IMG/VR virus record: IMGVR_UViG_3300037501_000255
DNA: 64,000 bases
Strand: one strand, 5' to 3'
Origin: a virus
Taxonomy: Duplodnaviria > Caudoviricetes
This document shows, in pieces, positions 6,726-20,551 of the stretch. Numbering within the stretch: position 1 is the first letter of the stretch; each line of letters opens with the position of its first letter. A model generated the notes under the pieces. That model saw nothing but the letters and a program-made list of their open reading frames with translations. It had not been told where the DNA came from and did no database searches. Position numbers and translations under genes: made by a program.

Positions 6726-8630
6726 TCACGGTGCTGGGCCGGGAGGCGTTGGCGCTCCCGGCATACCACCAGGCGGCTCCGCTGGTGTTGGTGGAGGCGG
6801 CATACCCATGCCTAAATCGCCGCCAGGCATTAGAGGTGGTAGTCCGCCCAATCCAAGGTCACCACCCGGCATCGGAGGTGGGACGCCCGGCAATCCACCC
6901 GGCATACCGCCTGCAAGACCACCAGCCGCACCCCCGGCTGGTTCAGGAATTGGCTCAGTTGGATTAAGACTCTTTAGCTGAGACAGGCTCATCTTAGATA
7001 GATTATCTTGTTCCTTGGCTATAATAGCGGCTTCAATCATCTCCTGCCTAATATTGGCAATTTCATTCTTGCGGCTCAAACCAAGGCTACGATCTAGCGT
7101 TCTAACAGAAACACGATTCTTTTCCACTAGTGTAGAGAGATGTGCGATATAATTATCGAGATCATATAGTGTCATATGATTCCATTCTACTTTGGGTACA
7201 ATCAAGCGCTTCTCTTGACCAACGATATCATAAAATCCTTGTACCTCAGAAATCGGAGCAAAAACCTTCCTCTCTAGCCAATTAGCTATCATAGTCCTAA
7301 ATCCGTTGTAGCGCTGCCTCATGACATCCAGGGCAACGGATGCTGTAGCATACGACGCGCCCTCCTGTGTAAGCAGGGATTTTGGAACCATAAGGCCTGT
7401 AAAGAGGTTATCCATAATCTGATTGATATCTGCGGCAGTATCCAGTATGTGCCCAGAAGCCCCGACTCGGTCAATCGTCACAGCACCGTGTGTGATGATT
7501 TTGAAATCTCTGTCAAATTGCGCCTGCTCCATAATAGCGCGCCAATTATCCAATTCTTCCTGCCGAGGATAGAATCCCTCAGCGCCATCCGTACCGATCT
7601 TAACAAGAGTGATCGGATTAACCATGCTATCTGCCTGAATATACTTACATTCCCTATACTTATCATATAACATTAGGTCTTTCCAGACACTAACTATAAT
7701 AGAGGTGCCACGAACATCATATGGTGAATTTAACATCTTCAAATGACTGATGTTGAAGTTATCCAGCGGAATCATTTCATTTCTAATCACATGATTGATG
7801 ATTTTCGGATCTATTTGATCACGTATGCGCGCATACTCGGGATCCGCATCTGATACAATCTTTTTCAGTTCCGGGTCGGGTCTTAATAAAATAGTAGTGT
7901 TCTTGGGGGAGGTCGGTGACGCTCTGACTGTGATAAAGTCTGGATTGTGCAAATATAACTGATCCCACGAGCCAGTAGACTCATCAAAGGAAGCGTATAC
8001 AAATGCTTCGCCCAACTTCCAGAACTCCAGCGCCGCCTGCTGAACAACGGTCTCGAGGTCAATTTTATCACACATATCCAAAAAGAATCTCTCTACGCGC
8101 TTATCATCGCACCGTATAGATAGCTTGGATATTGGGTATGTAGCATGCAGATTAATTGCATTTCTCACCAGAGGATTTGTCTCGTAATAAGCTCTATTCC
8201 ACGCATTCATTGTGATACGATCGCGGGGAAGCTGCATGTTTTGAGTGAGGAATAGGGGAGAGAATGGCTCTGGACCCACATGCGTGGAGTTTGACACTCC
8301 GCCTATGCGTCCTCCAGAATTCATATTTGTCGATGCAGTCTTATGAAGACCGGAGGCGAGCGCCAAGTTTGGTCTCGGATGCTCTTCTGCGCGAGCATTT
8401 ACCTCCTGTAGATACTCTCGGCGCTCAAGGCTAAGATGCCCAAGGGCGGCGGCTGACTGAGCCTGCCTGTGTAATGTTGTCCGTGAAACATTTTCTACAG
8501 GCAAACCACGCTGCTGCTGGGCTTGACGATAATACATTTGATCTATAACGCTGGTGCGAGGCTCGGCGTCCCCCCAACGTTTAGCCTGCTCTTCAGCTCT
8601 CTTTATAACACTTGGTTCATGCTTTTTCAT
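6726..8630 (-). CDS. phage portal protein
   Basis: Directly downstream of TerL; portal-like segments (YYETNPLVRNAINLH, EFWKLGEAF, YDVRGTSII, LMVPKSLL); Pro/Gly-rich C-tail. Confidence 0.75.
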   Translation of the reverse strand: MKKHEPSVIKRAEEQAKRWGDAEPRTSVIDQMYYRQAQQQRGLPVENVSRTTLHRQAQSAAALGHLSLERREYLQEVNARAEEHPRPNLALASGLHKTASTNMNSGGRIGGVSNSTHVGPEPFSPLFLTQNMQLPRDRITMNAWNRAYYETNPLVRNAINLHATYPISKLSIRCDDKRVERFFLDMCDKIDLETVVQQAALEFWKLGEAFVYASFDESTGSWDQLYLHNPDFITVRASPTSPKNTTILLRPDPELKKIVSDADPEYARIRDQIDPKIINHVIRNEMIPLDNFNISHLKMLNSPYDVRGTSIIVSVWKDLMLYDKYRECKYIQADSMVNPITLVKIGTDGAEGFYPRQEELDNWRAIMEQAQFDRDFKIITHGAVTIDRVGASGHILDTAADINQIMDNLFTGLMVPKSLLTQEGASYATASVALDVMRQRYNGFRTMIANWLERKVFAPISEVQGFYDIVGQEKRLIVPKVEWNHMTLYDLDNYIAHLSTLVEKNRVSVRTLDRSLGLSRKNEIANIRQEMIEAAIIAKEQDNLSKMSLSQLKSLNPTEPIPEPAGGAAGGLAGGMPGGLPGVPPPMPGGDLGLGGLPPLMPGGDLGMGMPPPPTPAEPPGGMPGAPTPPGPAP

Positions 8631-8643
8631 AATTCTTTACACC

Positions 8644-11556
8644 TTATATTCTCGGCAAATATGCCAACATCGGCACTGGCAAACCGGGACCTTTAGCCTT
8701 GACCTCGCTGCCCTTGAAGCCGCTCGTCGCCAAGAACTTGTATGCAATCAGAGCATATATTGTTGCCATGAGCCCGTCGTTTTGGATAGCACCCTTGACA
8801 TATCTGTTATATACATTATCATTCTTCACGATCTTCTTAACTTCCATCGAGGTAAAATGCTGCATCAACCACTCGATCCTATCGTATGACTCGCCATGTA
8901 CAGGGAAGCGGATTTTGCCATTTCTAACCATAGAGAATATCTCTTCTATCATGGCATCCTTATTTAAAACAACTCGTAATTCTTTTGGCTTATATGATAT
9001 AGTGCTATTCAAGGTGCCGCTGTTTATACATCCTAGAAATCGCTCACCAAAGCCCATCGAGCCCTGCATGTGTTGCACTATGTCTTGGCCGTATCCGATA
9101 TCTGCAGCAGCAACCTGAACCTTGAATAGTCGATACATTTCAGATATGATATTGACCTTGTATTCAAAATCATTGCGCTTTAATCTATAAGCATTTTCTA
9201 TTGTAAATATTCCATTTTTGTCCACACTAACAATTACCACGGCTGTATATGACTGCCCGGCATCAACTCTTCCTCCGCCAGAGTCCTCTTCATCCTCATC
9301 GCCAGCACCGACTAGGTCCTTCCCTCCCCAGTCTATGCCCATCACGACGGTTTTGTCTCCGCGATCAATAATAGTTTTTGCTAATCCACGAGTTCCGTCG
9401 CAGCAGTTTGCGCGAATATCATCTAGCGATATCGTCATGCCGCCACCACTATAGAACTCTCCCAATGTTTCATTTTTCCAGGCCTTCTCACTGCGTTCGC
9501 GATTTACAGACGGATCTAGGTCCAAAATGCTCTCTTTAGTAAACCAAGGATGTAGTAAAACACTTACGTGATAGCCCACATACTGCGTCTCGCCAAGCTT
9601 AGTAGGCATCCAGCGCCCACCCTCGATCGCATCAGCCTTTTTCTGCAACGTACCGCATTCGGGGCAGCGAACATCATGCCCGGATACCCAAATCTTCTTC
9701 CAGGAGTCGCTACCCATAGTGTATAGGAAAAAATAATGGGAGCAGCCAGTACACCGTAGCTGATAAAATCTCTGATCAGATTTTTGCCATAGGTTATAGA
9801 AGTGGGATCCTGTTCCTTTCGGCGTTCCAAAATATACCTGTATACCTTTGGTGGGCCTGCCATACTGTGCAGATGTTAAGATGGGACCCGCCGTCTCGAT
9901 AGCATCCTTTGACATATCCTGGCAATTGTGTGCAATCGGGCCACCGACATTTTTGCTGGTCCGGCTTGGGCAAAGTATGAAGTTATGGTTATCAGCTACG
10001 CCAATATCGTAAACGGCGTCTTCGCCAGCATCATACTGTAATTTGTCAACACATGTGAAAGCGTGCGAAGGACTACTGTTTGACCATGCATACCTATCTG
10101 CCGCCCAGCTGCGATAAAAAGATAGCTTATATTCCATATTATGATGCACATATGGCTGTATTATCTCACAAAGTTTTGAATAATTGGATGAATCCAGATA
10201 TAATGAAAAGTATGAGTAGTACTTTCTATATTCCGCGTTAATTCCAAACCTGGACAGCATCGCAACTAATCGAACCTGCGTATCCTCATCAAATGAGCAC
10301 GTTGAGATGCACGCACATCCCTTATTTACGAAGCCATCATCCATAAACCAGACAGCAAGAGCGCGAGCGTCAGCAGCATCCAACATCCACTGCGGACACG
10401 TACTCTTTGTGCGAGGAATGTATCCTGGTAATACAAAGCACTTTGATGAAAAACGTACTGCTGGCTTCTGAACATAACCATTTTTCTCAATATATGCAAC
10501 GCTACTATTAAACATCGACGCTTTCCATTCTGCGTATTCGCGCTGCTGTATGCCATGTGTTACAGAAAGGCGAAAGCGCCCACTCTTGGGACTCGAGATA
10601 TGGCCATCTCCGAGGAATGAACCAATTGCTATCTGCAGCTGGTCAGAATTCAAAGCGCGCACGCAGAGGTCTGTCCCAGGCGAAGTCATCAGGGCATCAC
10701 CGATACACAGGGACGATGCATCTACCCAGCCACGCTGAGTTAAAAATCTATGATTCGGCGTGCATTTGATCTCTCGATTTCCACAAGTAATTTGCATTAA
10801 TTTTCGGATTCCGCGATTCCAGGCACCATTAATTTGCTTGAACTCAAAAGTACAAGTTGACTCATTATAGCTCTTTACAAGCGGAAGCGGCTCACCGTTC
10901 GCCCACATATCATACAGCTTGCCTATTTTCTCTTTGCCAGAATCAGTCTCTATGTTCTGATCGTAGGGGAAACACTCGTCAAAGAAAATAGCGTCCTGCG
11001 AGAGACCGCGGATTCGGTCGCCATCCGCTCCGGTACCCTCTATACGAAGCTTATTGTATCCCTTAAATGTCTTTTCAGCTATAGCATCCTCCGTTCCTGC
11101 GACTTTAATAGCATTTGCGTCATTTTTTAACATTCTGCTATTTATATAGCCATTCTGCGAGCCTGCTACCATAGGGCCCAATTTATCTTTGGCGTACTTC
11201 GACATTAATCCTAGTGTTGGAAATACATGCAGAACCCTCATCGGAGGTTTGTCTGGTCCAGTGCCAAAGAGCCCTGAGGCTGTGAAGTACAATGATAATA
11301 CAGCCGCAAGAACAGTGGCGCCTATTTGGCGCCCCTTCAAAATCACCATCGGTTTAGCGGTCTTATTAGCCGCCTGAGCTGCCACTTCGCGATACAGGTC
11401 GGCCATAAACTTCCAACCAGTGCCACTCATGCGGAATGGTTTTCCGTCTACAGTCAGATGATTTTCTGCAAATGAAACAGGATCAAGAAGAGATATCTCA
11501 TTCTTGATCTGATTGAAAAGTTTTAGCGTTACTTCTTTGTTGGCTACTACCGTCAT
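8644..11556 (-). CDS. terL: terminase large subunit (GpA-like), intein-containing
   Basis: KGRQIGAT (ATPase), IFFDE Walker B interrupted by the intein, GTPK, CxxC...CPECG zinc motif, nuclease GIDWG and ADIGYG. Confidence 0.9.
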   Translation of the reverse strand: MTVVANKEVTLKLFNQIKNEISLLDPVSFAENHLTVDGKPFRMSGTGWKFMADLYREVAAQAANKTAKPMVILKGRQIGATVLAAVLSLYFTASGLFGTGPDKPPMRVLHVFPTLGLMSKYAKDKLGPMVAGSQNGYINSRMLKNDANAIKVAGTEDAIAEKTFKGYNKLRIEGTGADGDRIRGLSQDAIFFDECFPYDQNIETDSGKEKIGKLYDMWANGEPLPLVKSYNESTCTFEFKQINGAWNRGIRKLMQITCGNREIKCTPNHRFLTQRGWVDASSLCIGDALMTSPGTDLCVRALNSDQLQIAIGSFLGDGHISSPKSGRFRLSVTHGIQQREYAEWKASMFNSSVAYIEKNGYVQKPAVRFSSKCFVLPGYIPRTKSTCPQWMLDAADARALAVWFMDDGFVNKGCACISTCSFDEDTQVRLVAMLSRFGINAEYRKYYSYFSLYLDSSNYSKLCEIIQPYVHHNMEYKLSFYRSWAADRYAWSNSSPSHAFTCVDKLQYDAGEDAVYDIGVADNHNFILCPSRTSKNVGGPIAHNCQDMSKDAIETAGPILTSAQYGRPTKGIQVYFGTPKGTGSHFYNLWQKSDQRFYQLRCTGCSHYFFLYTMGSDSWKKIWVSGHDVRCPECGTLQKKADAIEGGRWMPTKLGETQYVGYHVSVLLHPWFTKESILDLDPSVNRERSEKAWKNETLGEFYSGGGMTISLDDIRANCCDGTRGLAKTIIDRGDKTVVMGIDWGGKDLVGAGDEDEEDSGGGRVDAGQSYTAVVIVSVDKNGIFTIENAYRLKRNDFEYKVNIISEMYRLFKVQVAAADIGYGQDIVQHMQGSMGFGERFLGCINSGTLNSTISYKPKELRVVLNKDAMIEEIFSMVRNGKIRFPVHGESYDRIEWLMQHFTSMEVKKIVKNDNVYNRYVKGAIQNDGLMATIYALIAYKFLATSGFKGSEVKAKGPGLPVPMLAYLPRI
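9925..10974 (-). mobile_element. 350-aa intein with LAGLIDADG homing endonuclease in TerL
   Basis: Starts CFPYDQNIET right after Walker B DE; block B CTPNHRF; endonuclease motifs GSFLGDG and WFMDDG; ends IAHN followed by +1 Cys, restoring FFDE-CQD. Confidence 0.93.
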
Positions 11557-11564
11557 ATATTCTC

Positions 11565-12206
11565 CTAGCGAGACGTGACGCCAGGAGAACCGCCCATACC
11601 AATATTTGCACGCTCACCTTGCCCAGTCATCTGCTGATCAGCAGCGGGCATAGTTACGGCGCCGCCTGACGGCAAAGCTGTCATCGGATCGTCTTTCGGA
11701 TATTGTTCAACGATATGCCGCAGCACATCGCGCACTTTCTCTCGCCCAAATGTCTCAATGATTTTCATACCATCTGGCTGGGACTTAAACTCCTCAATCA
11801 TGGTTTCAACGGAGGATAGACCGTGGTCCCTCTCGAGAAAATACTTCTTGCTGAATTCTTCTAACCTGGCAACGAGGCTGCTCTCATCCGGCACGCTCCC
11901 ATCATAAGAGGTATACTTTGCTTTACGGCTCAGCACAATCGGCTCGTCCTTGGCCCGCTTGCGCAGTACTCCATCTAGTCCGACGCGAGAGTGCAGCTCG
12001 GAAACCATACTTTCTACAGTATGCTTCCTGCCAGTAGTCTTGTTGATAGTTGGATCTTCTACTGCCATGATAGATAGGAAGTTATCAAAAACCTCGGACT
12101 TATCAGAGTCGCGCAGTTTTTGAAAATATTCCTGACGTGTAGCAGCAGCAGCAAAATGTTCTAGTACTTTAACTGCTTTAAGAAGATCATCGCTCATTAT
12201 ATTCAC
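11565..12206 (-). CDS. hypothetical protein (head module)
   Basis: 213-aa ORF, RBS ggtga, abutting its neighbours. Confidence 0.6.
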   Translation of the reverse strand: MNIMSDDLLKAVKVLEHFAAAATRQEYFQKLRDSDKSEVFDNFLSIMAVEDPTINKTTGRKHTVESMVSELHSRVGLDGVLRKRAKDEPIVLSRKAKYTSYDGSVPDESSLVARLEEFSKKYFLERDHGLSSVETMIEEFKSQPDGMKIIETFGREKVRDVLRHIVEQYPKDDPMTALPSGGAVTMPAADQQMTGQGERANIGMGGSPGVTSR

Positions 12207-13151
12207 CTATGCATGATAAGTAGTTCCGAAATCGACCCCATCCGAGGATGTGGGATCCTGGTCTTCCCCTAGCCGCCCAAGATCTTTAAACATTGGGAAT
12301 CCCTTCTGTAATAGCAGTTCCTGAATGCTCAACTCTTCGCGCGGCGTAAAGCGATACTTATCCTTAAGACTGGCATATACCTTTTCAATGTCGCGCCCGG
12401 CAGATACATGTGAATTTAACAGTAATCTAGTTATAGCATGCAGGAATGGATCTTCGAATAAGAAAATCTTTGCGCTCCCGGCCTCTTTGACTAGCTGGTC
12501 GCTCGTCTGCTCGCCCAAGGCGAAAATCTGTACCTGCTCATCTGTCGGTTCAGCCAGCGTAACAGGGAGGAGTTCCTCTCCTTCACCGTCATCTACAGCA
12601 ATGTAGTATTTAATATCCAAGCCATCATTGATCCTAGCGACGACCTGATTGCCGACCTTGACCGACGACTTCTTCTTCATCTTTTTCTTAGATGATAACT
12701 TATCATACGCATCTTCTAGTTTGGATACGAATTCCATAATTGTATCGCGTATCTTCTCTGCTTCCTCCTCGTCGATGACATTATCATCATCGCTCTGGAT
12801 GGCGCGTGAAATTTCACGATCAAGGCGCTTTAGGTAGGCAATTGCACGCTCGCAGCCAACAGTTGTCTGCCCAGTGTGGCGAGGGATGGTATCGAGGCGC
12901 TTGCGAACGTAGTCGAGAAATTTGCTGTGATCGCCGTCGTTAACCCAGTCCCGCTCGCGCGAATTCTCAACAACCTCACTTGCCTCCTCCTCGTCTGGGA
13001 TTACGACTACCACATCAGCGCCAGGAACGATATCTTCCAGCACTTCAACGGCCTCATCCAAAAGACCATCAGGTTCAAAAATTTCAAAAGTGTCATTATC
13101 TAATGCTGGCATATTATTGTCCTCCGCGCTTCTTTTCCAAAAGTGTTTCAA
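12207..13151 (-). CDS. hypothetical protein (head module, acidic N-terminus)
   Basis: 314-aa ORF; KRSAED, KEAGS motifs. Confidence 0.65.
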   Translation of the reverse strand: MKHFWKRSAEDNNMPALDNDTFEIFEPDGLLDEAVEVLEDIVPGADVVVVIPDEEEASEVVENSRERDWVNDGDHSKFLDYVRKRLDTIPRHTGQTTVGCERAIAYLKRLDREISRAIQSDDDNVIDEEEAEKIRDTIMEFVSKLEDAYDKLSSKKKMKKKSSVKVGNQVVARINDGLDIKYYIAVDDGEGEELLPVTLAEPTDEQVQIFALGEQTSDQLVKEAGSAKIFLFEDPFLHAITRLLLNSHVSAGRDIEKVYASLKDKYRFTPREELSIQELLLQKGFPMFKDLGRLGEDQDPTSSDGVDFGTTYHA

Positions 13152-13650
13152 ATAACTCAGTATCCATAGCTGCCTCTTTGATAATCTCTACATCCGATTC
13201 TTCTATGCTGGCATACATAGTTAATATGCTTGTAAATAGCTGCTGTGCTTCCATATTTTCCCAATATGAATTAAGAGGATATGCAACAAGGCCAGAAACA
13301 CCGCCGCCAGCATTGTTTGCTAATCCATTGAAAACACGCGGGTAATATGGACTAGCTCGCATAGGAGAGTCCCGCAATCCTTCACCGCCGTCTCTGAAAT
13401 CGCAATGCACAATAGGGGCTCCATCAACAATTTTATCAGCATACGGGCAGCGCTCTCCCGTTTTATGATGAAGGTATACCTTTTTATTAGCATTGGCAAA
13501 GTGCTCCCGATTCTCTTTGTCTACGTATTCTAGTGGAGCCATGCGATTAACACTATCACCTGCATTAAGGCAAGCATCGGATATTGGTAGCCCAAACGGG
13601 CATTCGCTATGCCCACTCTGCCGTATTACAGCCAATTTACGAAGAGTCAT
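13114..13650 (-). CDS. hypothetical Cys-containing protein
   Basis: 178 aa; ECPFG, DAC, RCPYA, HCDF suggest metal binding. Confidence 0.6.
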   Translation of the reverse strand: MTLRKLAVIRQSGHSECPFGLPISDACLNAGDSVNRMAPLEYVDKENREHFANANKKVYLHHKTGERCPYADKIVDGAPIVHCDFRDGGEGLRDSPMRASPYYPRVFNGLANNAGGGVSGLVAYPLNSYWENMEAQQLFTSILTMYASIEESDVEIIKEAAMDTELFETLLEKKRGGQ

Positions 13651-14129
13651 TTACCCTCCCCGTTTCCGCAGGCGACTTCTCGGATATATTTTATAAAATC
13701 AACTACCGCAGGCTCCGGCTTGCCGTCTAGAAGCTTAGTCCAATATTCAACATTGGATTTAGATCCGCAGTACGAATCTATGGGCGCAACATAGTTGGCG
13801 CTTTTCCTCTTCTTTTTCTTGCGTTCGACACCCCTCTTCTTGCGAATAAAATCTACGATCGTCCGTATCTTGCCGCTTCGATAATCATCCAAAACCTTAG
13901 GCCATAGCTCTCCGTAGTCATAATTTTTTCTTAATGGCTGAGGAACTTTAGATACGGCAGTATACATTAGAGTTTGTGACGCCATATTGGCGACAATCTC
14001 ATGCTCGGGGCGAGTGCTTAATTCAAGCACCTCATTACCTAGAGCGCACACCTCTGGTAGGTCCAGTGTCTGACCCATGCTGCGCAGAAGTGTCGCGAAT
14101 TTGATTAAAGATGGAACTAAGGTGTTCAT
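13647..14129 (-). CDS. hypothetical protein
   Basis: 160 aa, ATGA overlaps on both sides, basic patch RKKRGVERKKKKRKSA. Confidence 0.6.
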   Translation of the reverse strand: MNTLVPSLIKFATLLRSMGQTLDLPEVCALGNEVLELSTRPEHEIVANMASQTLMYTAVSKVPQPLRKNYDYGELWPKVLDDYRSGKIRTIVDFIRKKRGVERKKKKRKSANYVAPIDSYCGSKSNVEYWTKLLDGKPEPAVVDFIKYIREVACGNGEGK

Positions 14130-14878
14130 ATGATATCGACAAGGCGCCGCTCACGAATGAGCTGCTCAGTCATCTCCTTTGTTAGTTTGATTCTTTGCAA
14201 AACACCAAATTCAATTAGATCATTCAAGATATTTGGATCATATTTTATTGCAGCTGAAAGCTTATCAGAGGCGTACTTTGGCTTAATCTTCTCTATTAGT
14301 TGCAAATTTGAGCGTATTGCCTGCTTAAGCTCTTCATCAATAGCCATACCGTACTTAGCTGCATAGTAAAATGCTCTAATAATGCGATTTGGCGAGGCTG
14401 TCATTGCAATTACAGGATCTACAGGGCAACGTATAATGCGATGCTCAATATCATACTTACCCATAGACGTAATATCTAATATTTTTGAAAAATCTAGCGG
14501 CACCAATAAGGTATTAATGGTAAAGTCGCGAGAGTACGTTTCTCTCACCATATTGGTAGCTACAGTCAGCCCCCTAGCAATGAGTAGCTGATCTATGTTA
14601 TCATAAATTTGATTTGTAGAGAAATCTATCGAGAATCGCCCGTGTCGTATTTTCTTATGGCCATCAGCTAACACAGTAGGCGTCGTACCAAGCCGCGCAC
14701 CTACTAAATCAGCTAGATTTGAAATGCTGCTTTCACCATTTGTAAGGTCTATATCGTTCAGTCCATCGAGCAGCCCCATAAATATATCACGCGGAATGCC
14801 GCCAACGAGATATGGCACACGGATGCCATTACTCTCAGCAGTCTCAGTGATTATGTTCAAAATCTCTTTTAGATCCAT
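14126..14878 (-). CDS. class II nucleotidyltransferase (CCA-adding/poly(A) polymerase family) head domain
   Basis: YLVGGIPRD...NDIDLT (motif A with DxD), SRDFTINTL, PNRIIRA. Confidence 0.85.
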   Translation of the reverse strand: MDLKEILNIITETAESNGIRVPYLVGGIPRDIFMGLLDGLNDIDLTNGESSISNLADLVGARLGTTPTVLADGHKKIRHGRFSIDFSTNQIYDNIDQLLIARGLTVATNMVRETYSRDFTINTLLVPLDFSKILDITSMGKYDIEHRIIRCPVDPVIAMTASPNRIIRAFYYAAKYGMAIDEELKQAIRSNLQLIEKIKPKYASDKLSAAIKYDPNILNDLIEFGVLQRIKLTKEMTEQLIRERRLVDII

Positions 14879-14885
14879 TATCTAC

Positions 14886-16454
14886 TCACTCAATGCCAGG
14901 TATATATTTGAGGTTCACAGGCTCATCCTCAAACCCCTCGTCCTCTTGTTGGGAAGGGACTGCTTTTGGCTGCTTCGGCTCAGGTTTCGCCGGAGACTTG
15001 GGTGCCGACTTGCCACTAATGCCCGAGGCCATCTCGCGGACTTCGTCACCCAATTGTTTCTGTTCAGTTGAGACGGGAGCGACCTCTGGCGGGGCTTCGG
15101 AGACAATATCCGGCTGTGTCTGCAGTCCGCCTCGAAGTTTTGGCAGGAGATCCTCAACCTTATTACTGGCATATCCAAATGCATCAATAAGCTTTGACTG
15201 CGCTTCCTGAATTTCAGGAAAGAAGCTGGCCATGCGTAATTTGTGCAACATAAGATCTATCTCTGCCAACGAGCGTACCAGATCGCGATTTTTCAAAACA
15301 GCACTTATATCGGTTAAACGCTTAATTGCCTCATCGAGAGCCACTTCGCGCTGTTCTGGTGGTACGGCCCCAAACTCGCGCTCAACAACCTTGATGGTCC
15401 CAACCTCAGGTATTGGAGGTTCGTCGGCCGCTATGGCAAACAGCTCAGCAGCCCCATCAGAGAAATTGAGCTTTTCAAGTATATTGGCTGTTTTGATGAT
15501 CGAGTCTTTCATAGAGCTAGCTAGACGTAATTTCCTGATACGCTTCCGCAACTCTGAAAGTGCTTCCTCAACAGCGTCAATTTGTTCCTGTTTAATGACT
15601 TTTCTATATTTTTCTAACAGCTTATCTATTGCAAAAACACGGCTCATTAGCTTATTGCGAGCAGTTTCAAAGTCAACCACGTACTGATCATCATATCCCC
15701 TATCAAGAGCAGGAAGCGACATCTCCGGCTCGGGCTGTGGTTCGGGGCGACTGAGTAGCTTGGGAATATAGTAGTATTGCCCATCTGATGCTATCTTATT
15801 TTTCATGGAAACCTCTCTGCGCAAAACACGCTCGCGTGCTCGAATCTGCTCATTAACATCATATTTTGAAAACTCATTTTTCATATGATAGTTAGCCCAC
15901 AATAGGAATTTATATTTCTCAGGCACAGATAGCGATGCGGCTACGCGTTCTAAGGCTGCATCTAACCGAAATCCGGTGCGGACCATATTTTGTATCTGCA
16001 CAAATAATGCCGCCCACTTGCCAATGTCATATGCCGCCTCGGGGGCGACTGGTCGACCACTGTTAGGATGAGCGGATTTCTGCAAGGAGTCGTGCCCATC
16101 AGCCCAATTCCTGGCAGCATTCTTGAAAGATTGTAGGCTTGTTAAATTGAGATCATCTCGATTATCGAAAAGGAACTTCTTAAAATCTGCGCGCTCCTCT
16201 TTTGACAGTGACGTTCCAAGCAAATCCTTGAGCAAATCATCTGCAAATAGATCGATGTAGAAAAAGATTGCAAAATCCTTATCGTTTGAGACGCCGGCCT
16301 CGGTAGCTTCACGATAGTGATCTATGGCACCCTGCCACAGCTCCTCGGTAATGCCAGACTTGACCATGGCTGCAAGTTTTTCAGCGGCGTACTCATTTAT
16401 TAGCCCATATGTGAGCGCCAATTCGATTTCGCTATCAAAATCAACGTCCGCCAC
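14886..16454 (-). CDS. hypothetical protein (head module, helical)
   Basis: 522-aa ORF; KSAH, KIASD, RLASS, KTAN, RMASF motifs. Confidence 0.65.
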   Translation of the reverse strand: MADVDFDSEIELALTYGLINEYAAEKLAAMVKSGITEELWQGAIDHYREATEAGVSNDKDFAIFFYIDLFADDLLKDLLGTSLSKEERADFKKFLFDNRDDLNLTSLQSFKNAARNWADGHDSLQKSAHPNSGRPVAPEAAYDIGKWAALFVQIQNMVRTGFRLDAALERVAASLSVPEKYKFLLWANYHMKNEFSKYDVNEQIRARERVLRREVSMKNKIASDGQYYYIPKLLSRPEPQPEPEMSLPALDRGYDDQYVVDFETARNKLMSRVFAIDKLLEKYRKVIKQEQIDAVEEALSELRKRIRKLRLASSMKDSIIKTANILEKLNFSDGAAELFAIAADEPPIPEVGTIKVVEREFGAVPPEQREVALDEAIKRLTDISAVLKNRDLVRSLAEIDLMLHKLRMASFFPEIQEAQSKLIDAFGYASNKVEDLLPKLRGGLQTQPDIVSEAPPEVAPVSTEQKQLGDEVREMASGISGKSAPKSPAKPEPKQPKAVPSQQEDEGFEDEPVNLKYIPGIE

Positions 16455-17154
16455 TAATCACCGCCTCGCCAAGCATATGTCCGGTTACACTACCACCGTA
16501 CTCTAATGTTTTCATATTCCTATTTAGATTGTCCATAAACTTTATGGCCAAATCAGGAGAGGTTTCCTCCAACGATTTTCGTACAGAATCTCGAATTACA
16601 CTTATCTGATCATTCATAATGTTGATATTTATATTATGTTCAACAGACTCGGAGTAGCCCTCAACGTACTTCTTATAGCTCTCCAGTAGTTTAATCAACT
16701 GATCTATGTAGCCTTGAAATACTCGCTCTTCGCGTGAGTTTGGAAATTCATAGTTAGAAAGAAGATTGTAGAAGTGCTCTATACGAGCCTCGAGTAGAGA
16801 GAATGCCTTCAGAATTTCCTTCTGAACATCGAGCTTCCCATCGACAATTGCATTTATTTTCTTCTGATAAGCCGATGAGCCTGCGACGTTTTCGCGCCCC
16901 TCATTAAGGCGTTGTGCTGCAAGAGCCTCGGTGGCCGCCGCGCGCACATCACGCGCAATTTGCCCATCAAGATCAAGATAGTTTTTTTTGAAATTCTGTA
17001 TTGTAGAAAAGCTAACACGCAGGTGCGCATTCTCTGTACCAGGGTATTTAAGCCGCAAAAACTCGGCCACGTCGCGTACGGGAGTACCATTTACCAATTG
17101 AGATATGATCTCTTCTTTGTCCGGATGTTGTAGTAATTTATTCTGGGGGCTCAT
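16441..17154 (-). CDS. HTH plus coiled-coil protein; candidate terminase small subunit
   Basis: N-terminal KLLQHPDKEEIISQLVNGTPVRDVAEFL...VSFSTIQNF resembles the HTH of small terminases; lies about 5 kb upstream of TerL. The function is inference. Confidence 0.4.
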   Translation of the reverse strand: MSPQNKLLQHPDKEEIISQLVNGTPVRDVAEFLRLKYPGTENAHLRVSFSTIQNFKKNYLDLDGQIARDVRAAATEALAAQRLNEGRENVAGSSAYQKKINAIVDGKLDVQKEILKAFSLLEARIEHFYNLLSNYEFPNSREERVFQGYIDQLIKLLESYKKYVEGYSESVEHNININIMNDQISVIRDSVRKSLEETSPDLAIKFMDNLNRNMKTLEYGGSVTGHMLGEAVISGGR

Positions 17155-17163
17155 ATTTGCTCC

Positions 17164-17206
17164 AAAAAATAAGAGGGGCGCTGCCTATATGTACAGCCCG
17201 CCCCTC
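17164..17206 (-). terminator. Rho-independent terminator-like hairpin
   Basis: Minus strand GAGGGGCG..CTG-loop-CAGCGCCCCTC followed by TTATTTTTT, after the 423-aa gene. Confidence 0.6.
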
Positions 17207-17224
17207 ATAAACATCGAAGATGTC

Positions 17225-18496
17225 TCACTTTCTCCTAGACAATGCTCCGGCACCCTCGAAAATGCGTGAAGGCGGCGCATACTGGGAGAAGGTAGGCGTC
17301 TGGTGCTTAATACTGCCGCCTGCACGCGGAGTGCCGCTAGCATCAGTGAAGCCATGCTGAAAATCGTACACTTTATTGGTGACGACATCCTGGTATACAC
17401 CATCTGATATGCGCTTCATCATCACGCCGGGCATATCAGGCGAGTAGCGAGTCTGAGACACTGCGGTGCCCTGATGAGTTTGTAGATGATGATTCTCGCG
17501 ATTCTCTTCCACTTCACGCTTGGTCTTTTCATGCATTGTTTCTTCATTATGTGCTTTGAAATCGTACAAATCTTTGCGCGTCACATTTAGTGATGGGTAC
17601 TGATCTGCTGCGGCGACAATAACCCGCTCTACGATATCAGCAGCCTCTGTATAGCCTTCAGCATCTAACTTGTCGGCTACCTTCACCATATCAGATAGCA
17701 ACTCTGCGCGACTGCCTAGACCCATCCAACGCTTGAGTTTTTCATCCCAGGTCTCAGCATGTGTGCCGGAAGCCCGCGGCGGCTCAGCGCGAGTTCCCTT
17801 GGGAGCATATTTGCTAGGTGGCTGTGGAGGATTTTGCATAAGCTCACCTACACCTTCAGGAGAAAGAACTTTAACGGTCGGCTGTTTGCGTGTTAAATCG
17901 GGGCCAGCCGGGGCTGGAGCTGGTAGTGCCGGCGGTACAAGACCCCCTGCAACGTCACCCTGCATTAGTGCCTCAGTAGCCGATGTATCTTCAACCACTT
18001 CTTGTGGTTTGTTAGCAAGAGGAGGAATTCCTTCGACTGGAGCAGGGATTTCGCGTCCATAGGACTGTTGCCGACGCTCGCGCTCGGCTTCCTCGACAAT
18101 GTCTGCCCATGATTGCTCTGCAGCAGCAGGTGCTGCTTCACCAGGCATTTCTACAGGAGTAGTTTCTCCGGGAGGTTCAGCTGGGATAAGCGGATTCTCG
18201 CCGCGCCCGCGCTGCTTTTCAAGCCCTGCAAGCTGACGTGTTAATTGAGCGTGGCCATCCTTAAGCTGTAGAAGGCGCCATTTTAGACCGCGCGGAATCT
18301 TCCCACTGTCCAGAGTTGCATCCAAAAAATCCTTTAGTTTCGCATTAAATTCCGCAACTTCTTCGGGCGTCATTACTGTGACGCGACGTGCTGCATGAGC
18401 CTGCAGGACGCCCTCAAGCGCAGCAGCGGCCTGTTTGGCCGCAGGACTCTCAACATTATTCAAAATGCTCGCAGTCTTAGATAAAAAATCAAGCAT
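17225..18496 (-). CDS. hypothetical protein (head module, Pro/Ala-rich centre)
   Basis: 423 aa; LSKTASIL at the N-terminus; MVKVADKLDAEGYTEAADIV module. Confidence 0.65.
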   Translation of the reverse strand: MLDFLSKTASILNNVESPAAKQAAAALEGVLQAHAARRVTVMTPEEVAEFNAKLKDFLDATLDSGKIPRGLKWRLLQLKDGHAQLTRQLAGLEKQRGRGENPLIPAEPPGETTPVEMPGEAAPAAAEQSWADIVEEAERERRQQSYGREIPAPVEGIPPLANKPQEVVEDTSATEALMQGDVAGGLVPPALPAPAPAGPDLTRKQPTVKVLSPEGVGELMQNPPQPPSKYAPKGTRAEPPRASGTHAETWDEKLKRWMGLGSRAELLSDMVKVADKLDAEGYTEAADIVERVIVAAADQYPSLNVTRKDLYDFKAHNEETMHEKTKREVEENRENHHLQTHQGTAVSQTRYSPDMPGVMMKRISDGVYQDVVTNKVYDFQHGFTDASGTPRAGGSIKHQTPTFSQYAPPSRIFEGAGALSRRK

Positions 18497-18504
18497 CAGC
18501 CACC

Positions 18505-20049
18505 TCAGTCTTCTGGAATAAGATACATGAGTGTGCTGCTCATTTTTATTCGATCCTCAACATTCTTTGCTCGCTCACCCGCCTCAGCAATCATTTGCTC
18601 AATTGGAGTTACAGAGCTGGTGTTAGAACCAGCAGCATTACTAAGTATATCTGATAAATCGGTAAATGCTGCGCGGTGGAATTCTGGTCCGTATTGCTCC
18701 GCTATGACAGCCATAGCATCTTCGGCTTCAACAAAATTTCCATATGCAGCATTCTTGATAACGTAAGCGTACAAATCTCTGTAGGCCCAACCTGATTTAT
18801 TAGAAAATGCAGCATTGAACACGCCACTGTCTGCAGCAGATGCAAATCTATTTAGAGATTGCGTATCGAATGATTCTACTGTAGTGCCGGAAGTAAATAC
18901 ACTTGGCATTAATACTTGGCCGCTGACAATCTCTACAGGAACCTGAATCGTCTTTTTACCGCCCGAACCAATGAGAGAGGTCGAGATTACCATTCCACTA
19001 TCAAACTCTGAATCAACAGCAAGGCGCTCGATGCGCAACCCTGCTGCACGAATATTGTCAGCCACCACGGTTTTGGCTGTCACTACGACATTCTTGTCGT
19101 ACGAGAGGCCTGCCTCGACCAGGGCATCCCTCAGCTCCGGGGTTACCATGCCAGTCAATGAATCCGGAAGTTCGGTAAAAGTCACCTCGTCGGCTGCGCT
19201 CAAGCCCTCAGAGACAGTCTGATATAATGACGGAGAGGCTAGCGCAATCTCGTCGCCGCTCGCAGTTTTTACCGAAAGCTCTTTACGTTCGGCATTTGCA
19301 ACCGCAGCCAGGCCGGCAAGCAATTTCTGTGGGGACGCTAGACGCACAGTTCCGTTTTGAAGGTCCCCAGCATAAGCTAGCAGGTTATCCTTAGTCATCT
19401 CGACAAATCCCTTATCAGAAGCAAATACGCTCGGCATAAGAGCCGAGCCTTGCTTTATTTCTACTGGAACGTACGTAGTAAATCTTCCAATCGGGCTATC
19501 TGCCTGGACTGAAAACATCAGGAAGCCATCTGTCCTCCCAATAACTTCCACTGCTGGGCTACCAAAACCCATAGAAGCAAAGTGGATCTTCAAACTATCA
19601 CGCCCAGCTGTTACAGTACGATCTCCCGCTACTTCGGTATTGCCCCATAATGAAGCAAATTCTCCGACGAGATTGTCATCAGCGAGTTTGAGGACATCAT
19701 CGGAATCTCTGCGACTGGCAGTGAAATCGGTGTTGTAGTGAGCAACCGCCTCTGGCGCAGCGGTAATCAGTAGGTCTCCCAGTAATTCACGGAACGCCGT
19801 CTTATTACCTAAAGCACACACATCATCATATAATGATTGAAACTGCTTCTGGGTAATGGTTGCTAAACTACCCTCTTTCTCTATGCGGCGGCGCAACGCC
19901 ACTTGGGCTGTACGAATTGCGGCGTCATGCGGCAACACTGTAGCAGCGTCATCCAGGCGCCCCAAAACTGTCGATATAAAGTATTCTTTACCAGTCAATA
20001 CATGATTTGCCAGACTGAGCAATTGTGCCAGATCTACTGTTTGAGACAT
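18505..20049 (-). CDS. hypothetical protein with internally duplicated domain
   Basis: 514 aa; VPVEIKQGSALMPSVF and VPVEIVSGQVLMPSVF. Confidence 0.7.
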   Translation of the reverse strand: MSQTVDLAQLLSLANHVLTGKEYFISTVLGRLDDAATVLPHDAAIRTAQVALRRRIEKEGSLATITQKQFQSLYDDVCALGNKTAFRELLGDLLITAAPEAVAHYNTDFTASRRDSDDVLKLADDNLVGEFASLWGNTEVAGDRTVTAGRDSLKIHFASMGFGSPAVEVIGRTDGFLMFSVQADSPIGRFTTYVPVEIKQGSALMPSVFASDKGFVEMTKDNLLAYAGDLQNGTVRLASPQKLLAGLAAVANAERKELSVKTASGDEIALASPSLYQTVSEGLSAADEVTFTELPDSLTGMVTPELRDALVEAGLSYDKNVVVTAKTVVADNIRAAGLRIERLAVDSEFDSGMVISTSLIGSGGKKTIQVPVEIVSGQVLMPSVFTSGTTVESFDTQSLNRFASAADSGVFNAAFSNKSGWAYRDLYAYVIKNAAYGNFVEAEDAMAVIAEQYGPEFHRAAFTDLSDILSNAAGSNTSSVTPIEQMIAEAGERAKNVEDRIKMSSTLMYLIPED

Positions 20050-20050
20050 A

Positions 20051-20551
20051 TTATTCCTCGCTATTTGTCTTTAGCTCTGAGACAACCTCTGTCATATGCA
20101 GCGGTAGCCCCTTAAGCACTTGCCGTACGAACTCAGGTTCGGCGGTCTTTGCTTGTAAAAATGCGGCAAACTGCTCAGCCTCATCTGGTACAAACTTAAA
20201 CTCTTCAGATGCAAAGCGCTTGAGCGGAAAACCCTTAAAACTGAGGGTTATATTCTTGCGATCTCGATCGCAAATAGCGGTCCAGTCGGACGAGGCCGTT
20301 GTTTTGATTTCTGCGGGTTGCTCGTTTTCGGAGGTTTTCACAGGCATATTTTCATACATCGCATAAAGATATTTGTTGCCATCTTCTCCGTCGCGGAGCT
20401 CCCAAAGCTGCTCGGAACCATCCAGAGGCTTGTATACGTCCCAAGCTACTTTACGGAAGCCGCTCCGCACTTCTTCCCAAGCAAGGCGCTGAGTGTCACG
20501 TTTCGGCTCAACAACATCAGCAAGGCGAGCCCAATCAAAATCAGCAGACAT
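20051..20551 (-). CDS. hypothetical protein
   Basis: 166 aa, strong RBS ggagg. Confidence 0.65.
   Translation of the reverse strand: MSADFDWARLADVVEPKRDTQRLAWEEVRSGFRKVAWDVYKPLDGSEQLWELRDGEDGNKYLYAMYENMPVKTSENEQPAEIKTTASSDWTAICDRDRKNITLSFKGFPLKRFASEEFKFVPDEAEQFAAFLQAKTAEPEFVRQVLKGLPLHMTEVVSELKTNSEE

Follow-up and report, generated by a model that had tools for sequence, protein, structure and literature searches.

The 64,000-nucleotide stretch of DNA analysed here (hereafter, the window) comes from the virus record IMGVR_UViG_3300037501_000255 (Duplodnaviria; Caudoviricetes) and carries a gene for a 250-amino acid (aa) protein of the class II nucleotidyltransferases (NTases), the superfamily of CCA-adding enzymes and poly(A) polymerases (PAPs). 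The open reading frame (ORF) lies on the minus strand, with its ATG at 14878–14876 and its stop codon at 14128–14126, and every large ORF of the window has the same orientation. Sequence comparison and structure modelling predict that the NTase is a catalytically competent, minimal class II ribonucleotidyltransferase. It belongs to a phage family whose real novelties are a minimal architecture, the motif variants SRD and DGH, and template residues that drift freely. On balance, we judge the chances to be about even that the protein is a late, possibly virion-delivered enzyme that tails 3′ ends with something other than CCA.

The assignment to the class II superfamily was supported by sequence profiles and by structure. 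The protein passed the gathering threshold of the Pfam PolyA_pol head model (PF01743; 40.1 bits, cut-off 23; E = 5.5e-10), matched PHROG 2244, “tRNA nucleotidyltransferase” (E = 9.8e-16), and displays the hG[GS]...DxD signature of the superfamily (GGIPRD ... NDIDLT). An AlphaFold2 model built with 109 homologues, which had a mean predicted local distance difference test (pLDDT) score of 95.7, consists of a Pol-beta fold followed by a helical neck. The 46 best PDB matches of this model were all class II CCA-adding, A-adding or PAP enzymes, and the top Foldseek matches (4wby, 1vfg, 1miv and 3h37) had E values of ~1e-10 and template-modelling (TM) scores by query of ~0.7. All 250 residues map onto the first ~250 residues of PDB chains that are 340–420 residues long, which indicates that the NTase comprises head and neck only; HD, body and tail domains are absent from the 250 aa, and the chain ends where the body starts. 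An earlier note on this DNA, made from the sequence alone, had described a protein of 250 aa lacking HD and tail domains, and the structural matches agree with that description. Scores against the NCBIfam equivalog models for CCA enzymes fell far below the cut-offs (43 of 290 bits for NF009814, 35.6 of 438.8 for TIGR02692, and 15.9 of 451 for NF008137), as did those against the PcnB models TIGR01942 (38.5 bits, cut-off 305.65) and NF008634 (26.8 bits, cut-off 702).

To place the sequence motifs, the NTase was aligned residue by residue with enzymes of known structure and with five canonical CCA enzymes of phages. Motif A is represented by GGIPRD and NDIDLT, the third carboxylate is D85 in the sequence IDFS, and motif C comprises D135, G140 and D143. 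Motif B, YSRDFTIN, aligned with (R/K)RRDFTIN and thus reads SRD in place of RRD. The catalytic DxD (NDID) and RDFTIN, which the earlier note had called intact, are both present, the latter with the reservation that the residue preceding it is Ser. In motif D, ASPNRIIR aligned with EDPxRxLR, so that the Arg alone is kept. Alignments by phmmer and by profile, to 9ns4 and 4wby/1vfg, pair each of residues 161–165 (ASPNR) with its counterpart in EDP(L/V)R, and the same residues match the (E/D)DPLR columns of the five canonical phage enzymes. The earlier note's placement of ASPNR at the EDxxR position is therefore upheld, and no EDxxR occurs anywhere else in the translation. The BxA element is also missing: the canonical phage enzymes have R-x-E after the third carboxylate, the window NTase has S-x-N-Q, and the equivalent of this position across the family is S-x-N-[FQ].

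A word-indexed search recovered ~110 homologues of 240–263 aa, with identities down to 30% and on contigs of up to 422 kb, and an exhaustive profile search yielded 214 representatives of 50%-identity clusters at E ≤ 1e-30, mostly of ~250 aa. Literature searches turned up no account of phage class II enzymes of this short SRD type. No variation was seen among 109 close homologues at G26, G27, R30, D42, D44, T46, H74, D85, S87, R117, D118, F119, T120, N122, R165 and R168. Among 121 core representatives, the Ser at S116 is found in 120, the His at H74 in 104 and the Arg at R165 in 115. Retained in the family is the core that binds metal and phosphate/ribose (GG..R, DxD, D85, R117-D118, D135, D143, R165 and R168), and the hallmark of the family is the combination of SRD, DGH, DFS, absence of BxA and a length of ~250 aa. 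The two acidic template positions behave otherwise. In the same 121 representatives, the equivalent of the template D is D in 67 (55%), N in 25 and S in 10; almost any residue occurs at the equivalent of the E; and the pair reads DD in 29 (24%) and ED in one. On a FastTree phylogeny of 106 representatives, from the building of which the template columns were excluded, at least 28 changes were counted at the D-equivalent and at least 55 at the E-equivalent, with a single change each at S116 and D135. These counts indicate that the base-contacting template side chains behave as weakly constrained sites. The loss of both acidic residues, as in ASPNR, is accordingly a trait of the subclade of this phage and not of the whole family, and the missing template that the earlier note singled out is not what defines a family in which more than half of the core members keep the D.

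Class II NTases are the textbook case in which protein side chains stand in for a nucleic-acid template. The EDxxR motif is this amino-acid template in CCA-adding enzymes and in Escherichia coli PAP, and a PAP in which the template Arg had been replaced incorporated A, C and U at random (PMC2532741). The RRD motif is involved in ribose recognition, and the BxA element, which borders a flexible loop, is required for A addition; an Arg of this loop touches the Glu of EDxxR, a contact that matters for A addition, and the kcat of the human E164A enzyme is strongly reduced (PMC2910056). When the template positions of the human enzyme were randomised, with E, D, R, N, K, S, G, T and A on offer, in vivo selection yielded EDxxR, DDxxR and GDxxR only; no substitute for D or R emerged, E164A gave no growth, and the DDxxR variant supported A repair (PMC11784652). 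Carried over from the human enzyme to the window NTase, these data would mean that A161 or S162 by itself precludes efficient repair, whether by A or by CCA addition, and the retained Arg165 would still favour A and C over G and U. Considering that the first Arg of RRD, the BxA element, the conserved E/D pair, and the body and tail are all missing, we regard faithful CCA addition by the NTase as very unlikely on sequence and model grounds. In this respect the earlier note, which had predicted altered or relaxed nucleotide specificity in place of CCA repair, is partly supported; Arg165 is nearly invariant, so that a preference for A and C may well persist. The conservation of this Arg suggests a preference that is relaxed rather than abolished.

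Gene order points to a second property of the family (Table 1). In all 80 of the IMG/VR loci that were recovered with the NTase family profile and used as the synteny sample, a gene of the 522-aa type stands immediately before the NTase gene, and in many relatives the two abut or overlap. Nearly all loci that are long enough have the genes for the 166-, 514-, 423- and 237-aa proteins upstream, and those for the four-cysteine (Cys4) protein, the 314-aa protein, the large terminase subunit (TerL) and the portal protein downstream; hardly any related locus lacks the 314-aa gene, and the 213-aa gene is confined to the closer ones. This order is kept even where NTase identity is 31–35%. The fixed arrangement in 80 loci argues that the NTase gene is a vertically inherited core gene of a terminase-proximal block and not a roaming accessory gene. 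In the window, TerL begins ~2.6 kb downstream of the NTase gene and is followed by the portal gene, which is the type of neighbourhood in which phage polyvalent proteins are encoded; upstream, beyond the 166-aa gene, lie a sigma-r4-like gene and a primase gene. The window contains no tRNA genes, and the earlier note had rightly placed the NTase among packaging and not tRNA genes. Since the genes of the block are closely packed or overlap, the NTase would be co-transcribed with the packaging genes.

Table 1. The NTase gene, its key residues and the neighbouring genes in the window.
Feature	Position (nt)	Strand	Evidence or remark
Class II (PolyA_pol-type) NTase, minimal, 250 aa, head and neck	14126..14878	-	ORF, Pfam, PHROG, AlphaFold2 (AF2), alignments
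NTase key residues			G26 G27 R30; D42 x D44; D72-G-H74; D85-F-S87; S116-R-D-F-T-I-N
NTase key residues, later part			D135, D143, A161-S-P-N-R165, R168
160-aa fast-evolving repeat protein	13647..14129	-	start overlaps NTase stop (ATGA)
178-aa Cys4 protein	13114..13650	-	downstream of NTase in most related loci
522-aa protein, no recognised family	14886..16454	-	directly upstream of NTase, gap 7 nt
Four conserved genes (237, 423, 514 and 166 aa), no recognised family	16441..20551	-	part of block
Two conserved genes (314 and 213 aa)	11565..13151	-	between Cys4 gene and terminase
TerL, GpA_ATPase type, with intein	8644..11556	-	context marker
Portal protein	6726..8630	-	context marker

The genome that carries the window belongs to a large clade of uncultured huge phages which, by portal sequence, are distant kin of Bacillus phage G. 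A megablast search of 5 kb against cultured phages gave no match, and the nearest cultured phage by portal was phage G (gp14, 32% identity). Five large records of relatives were searched over their full length for a canonical CCA enzyme. The short NTase and a full-length enzyme occurred together in two of the five, G001 (392 kb, 91% estimated completeness) and G004 (321 kb), where the full-length enzymes are 505–537 aa long, contain RRDLTIN, DDPLR and an HD domain, and are encoded elsewhere in the genome. Because the two genes coexist, the short gene is apparently not the CCA enzyme of the phage, and by gene content it is not redundant with the canonical one. Bacillus phage G has a canonical CCA enzyme of 437 aa, and a search of this phage for the short-NTase family found no member. 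Phage G also contains a 308-aa frame (L013, 136478–136900) that is divergent and class II-like, with KADYTLN for RRDFTIN and without EDxxR. With regard to tRNA genes, a cluster encoding Ser-GCT, Ser-TGA, Ser-GGA, Ser-CGA, Tyr-GTA and Cys-GCA lies outside the window (G000:C1:132923–140669), and all six tRNA genes in the 142-kb contig (38% of the genome; four Ser, one Tyr and one Cys) encode the 3′ CCA.

These observations bear on the possibility that the NTase is a stripped-down enzyme for repairing tRNA 3′ ends damaged by host nucleases, adding A, CC or CCA, with the grip on the tRNA supplied in trans, for example by the Cys4 protein. Such an enzyme would have the class II fold and core motifs that the NTase has, and would keep the nearly invariant Arg165; the DDxxR found in 24% of the core representatives is competent for A repair in the human enzyme, the phage carries tRNAs, and CCA enzymes that serve in repair are known from jumbo phages (PMC7824862). 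Furthermore, one member of a more distant subfamily (P0161) is fused to HAD_SAK, the HAD domain of the “Swiss Army Knife” RNA-repair proteins. Against it stand the A and S at the E and D positions, given that Ser was offered and never selected and that E164A failed in the human enzyme (PMC11784652), and the absence of BxA, RRD, body and tail. Residues at the template positions are exchanged as readily as at sites under no constraint, and in two large relatives a full-length canonical CCA enzyme is present in addition to the short NTase. The canonical phage CCA genes examined are moreover scattered, unlike the NTase gene with its fixed synteny with packaging genes. Taken together, we consider tRNA-end repair unlikely, with the DDxxR quarter of the family and the HAD fusion keeping it among the readings to be weighed.

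Fusion proteins offered a further indication of function. About one third of the representatives listed are longer than 285 aa, and in these the NTase is nearly always N-terminal. Within the core family, P0167 joins the NTase to Peptidase_M15 and a phage lysozyme and occupies the same genomic slot (L009, L087), and P0190 joins it to M15. P0130, P0135 and P0141 are single chains in which the NTase is joined to part of the 160-aa protein and to the complete Cys4 protein, and P0135 (L010) again lies in the same slot, before TerL. Distant subfamilies contain fusions to ART-PolyVal (P0253), SLT (P0259) and PcfJ (P0155). Multi-enzyme chains encoded beside portal and terminase genes have been named phage-type polyvalent proteins (Iyer et al. 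2017, PMC5512222) and are predicted to be packaged and injected. Chains with several effector domains were found in P0167, P0190, P0253, P0259 and P0155, and the window NTase is a single domain. A text search of PMC5512222 found no CCA-type NTase module among polyvalent proteins; a Pol-beta NTase is listed there in proteins of conjugative elements only, and is predicted to act on proteins. The near-invariant synteny with terminase and portal genes and the hydrolase fusions found at this genomic position lend indirect support to the late or virion-associated activity at which the earlier note had hinted, and make such a role for the NTase plausible.

Two further loci with unusual arrangements were observed. 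An unrelated 27-kb contig (L101:9001–15368) encodes, in a different context, the 998-aa NTase and ART-PolyVal protein P0253 directly before a 1123-aa protein with PolyA_pol, PolyA_pol_RNAbd and HD domains, so that two class II NTases stand in tandem within giant multidomain proteins. P0229 (910 aa) has three PolyA_pol stretches together with weak HD and tRNA_NucTran2_2 matches, which could reflect the fusion of a short-type NTase with a CCA-type enzyme of full length.

The tailing reading may be set out as follows. The NTase would make no faithful CCA end but would add one or a few nucleotides to an accessible 3′-OH, most probably of RNA, and base choice would be made mainly through Arg165, giving a bias towards A and C that is nevertheless relaxed. 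The enzyme would be produced late, alongside the packaging genes, and may travel in the virion and enter the host together with the DNA, as polyvalent proteins are predicted to do, at least in the hydrolase-fused relatives. The Cys4 and 160-aa proteins may provide the grip on the substrate in place of body and tail. A more specific version, in which the NTase is a particle-delivered (or late-made), template-poor, minimal effector that tails RNA 3′ ends of host or phage for take-over or counter-defence, with base-selecting residues that could diversify from lineage to lineage and different subclades adding different nucleotides, is put forward tentatively and with more doubt than confidence; if true, a CCA-family module would for the first time be recognised as a phage effector delivered with the particle.

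Several points weigh against the reading of a late, possibly virion-delivered tailing enzyme. The window NTase is a solo domain, and particle delivery is extrapolated from a small number of relatives with fusions: of 49 long representatives, only ~7 have a recognised partner of the cell-wall or polyvalent kind. The label “morphogenetic” for the block derives solely from its adjacency to terminase and portal genes, since the neighbours belong to no recognisable family. With respect to late co-transcription, a scan for promoters and terminators found consensus counts equal to those in shuffled sequence. The mutational data come from the human enzyme, and another protein context may tolerate Ser at the template position. 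Finally, the DDxxR of about a quarter of the family and the relative with the RNA-repair HAD domain count here as well as in favour of tRNA repair.

The same evidence was weighed for substrates other than RNA. If the NTase acted on DNA, its substrate would be the 3′ ends of the phage genome, to be lengthened or marked during or after packaging, possibly with deoxynucleoside triphosphates by way of its altered RRD. The invariant position beside terminase and portal genes would fit such an activity, as would the Ser that replaces, in 120 of 121 core representatives, the first Arg of a motif involved in ribose recognition (PMC2910056). However, R117 and D118 of this motif are invariant, and no DNA-binding domain was recognised. 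No natural class II enzyme is known to work on DNA ends, which counts further against this activity, and we consider it improbable. A role in nucleotidylating a protein or small molecule, or in making a signalling nucleotide, would be consistent with the loss of the domains that hold nucleic acid; but the nearest folds and sequences are all enzymes of polynucleotide 3′ ends, and the neck with R165 and R168, which belong to the pocket for nucleoside triphosphate and primer, is kept, so that such a role is quite improbable. Least credible of all is that the NTase is a non-catalytic structural or scaffolding protein retaining the fold. Its neighbours do look morphogenetic by position, but the metal carboxylates, GG..R and RD are invariant in more than 100 divergent sequences, which would not be expected of a pseudoenzyme.

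The two proteins encoded directly downstream of the NTase were analysed further. Four cysteines of the 178-aa protein are invariant (C17, C27, C68 and C83); the first ~90 residues of the protein were modelled confidently and the conserved remainder poorly, and the N-terminal part is probably a zinc-binding module. A fold search with the Cys4 model against 48,161 PDB representatives returned nothing at Z ≥ 2. The 160-aa protein evolves fast, with only seven homologues, and contains two copies of a ~30-aa module of the form W-x-K-x-L-D ... V-D-F-I (YGELWPKVLDD...IVDFIRKK and VEYWTKLLDG...VVDFIKYI) with a Lys-rich stretch between them. Copies of this module are also present in the long fusions, with as many as three in P0140, an NTase fusion of 1117 aa. 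A phmmer comparison of the 160-aa protein with all minus-strand ORFs of the window matched only the protein itself, a 25-aa motif being beyond the reach of this test. Database gene calls give 142 aa for the Cys4 gene and 143 aa for the 160-aa gene, but homologues span the longer ORFs (178 and 160 aa) from end to end at 60–75% identity, and the longer starts are therefore probably right. That the two downstream ORFs are the body and tail of a split CCA enzyme was considered and rejected, since a Cys4 module with a low-confidence tail and a short repeat protein are not helical lookalikes of those domains. The fusion of both proteins to the NTase in some lineages suggests that they work with it. 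A complex prediction for NTase and Cys4 protein, run without controls, gave a score of 0.00 and is taken to speak neither for nor against such a partnership.

As for the other neighbours, none of the nine flanking proteins had a usable match in Pfam, PHROG or NCBIfam, and 105 homologues likewise had none in Pfam or PHROGs. ESM Atlas comparisons of the 522-aa and 237-aa proteins produced only one weak lead, to Terminase_5, for the latter: the 237-aa protein (16441–17154, minus strand) scored 0.91 to clusters of this small-terminase-like family, without support from sequence profiles. The TerL gene is interrupted by an intein with Intein_splicing and LAGLIDADG_2 homing endonuclease domains, flanked by exteins that match GpA_ATPase and PHROG 675. 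Many relatives have TerL ORFs of 780–1340 aa and portal ORFs of ~1000 aa, and these lengths suggest that in this clade both genes often carry inteins.

As a whole, the analysis describes a large conserved family that keeps its catalytic core, lets its template residues drift and drops the half of the enzyme that holds the tRNA. If its members are active, they would form a natural series of templates (xD, xS, xN and DD) from which to learn what sets base choice, and would show what a bare head–neck core is capable of. A core gene of a widespread clade of huge phages, sometimes fused to hydrolases, points to an unrecognised step directed at RNA or at nucleic-acid ends, either late in infection or at entry. 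For annotation, it follows that such genes should not be named “CCA-adding enzyme” or counted towards tRNA repair in surveys of huge phages.

Compared with known systems, the window NTase has the same Pol-beta head, helical neck and order of motifs A–D as the CCA-adding enzymes of Geobacillus (1MIV) and Thermotoga (3H37) and the A-adding enzyme of Aquifex (1VFG, 4WBY). With class II tRNA NTases in general it shares the DxD and third carboxylate, the RD of motif B, the motif C aspartates, the motif D Arg and the RxxR helix, with profile E values down to 1e-26 and Foldseek values of ~1e-10. Unlike them, it is 250 aa long without body or tail, reads SRD, lacks BxA, has DGH for GT, does not conserve the E and D of EDxxR, and scores far under the equivalog cut-offs. 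The canonical phage CCA enzymes (those of Lak, Felix-O1-like Erwinia phage, Bacillus phage G and two relatives) are also class II proteins and are annotated alike, but they are 417–537 aa long, contain RRD, (E/D)DPLR, BxA and often HD, and are encoded elsewhere in the genome. Phage polyvalent proteins (PMC5512222) resemble the relatives in which the NTase is fused to lysozyme, M15, SLT, ART-PolyVal or PcfJ, and share the portal–terminase neighbourhood with the NTase, which in the window is a single domain. A class II NTase-like domain of Pandoravirus also lacks EDxxR, from which its authors speculated that base specificity had been lost (bioRxiv 10.1101/2023.12.02.569716); this domain differs in belonging to a eukaryotic giant virus, in being fused to BTB and in having no shown kinship to the phage family. 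PcnB, the bacterial poly(A) polymerase I, has the same class II core and carries out non-CCA tailing with relaxed fidelity (PMC2532741). Although PAP keeps EDxxR, RRD, the body and C-terminal RNA-binding regions, PcnB would by analogy be the nearest functional counterpart of the window NTase.

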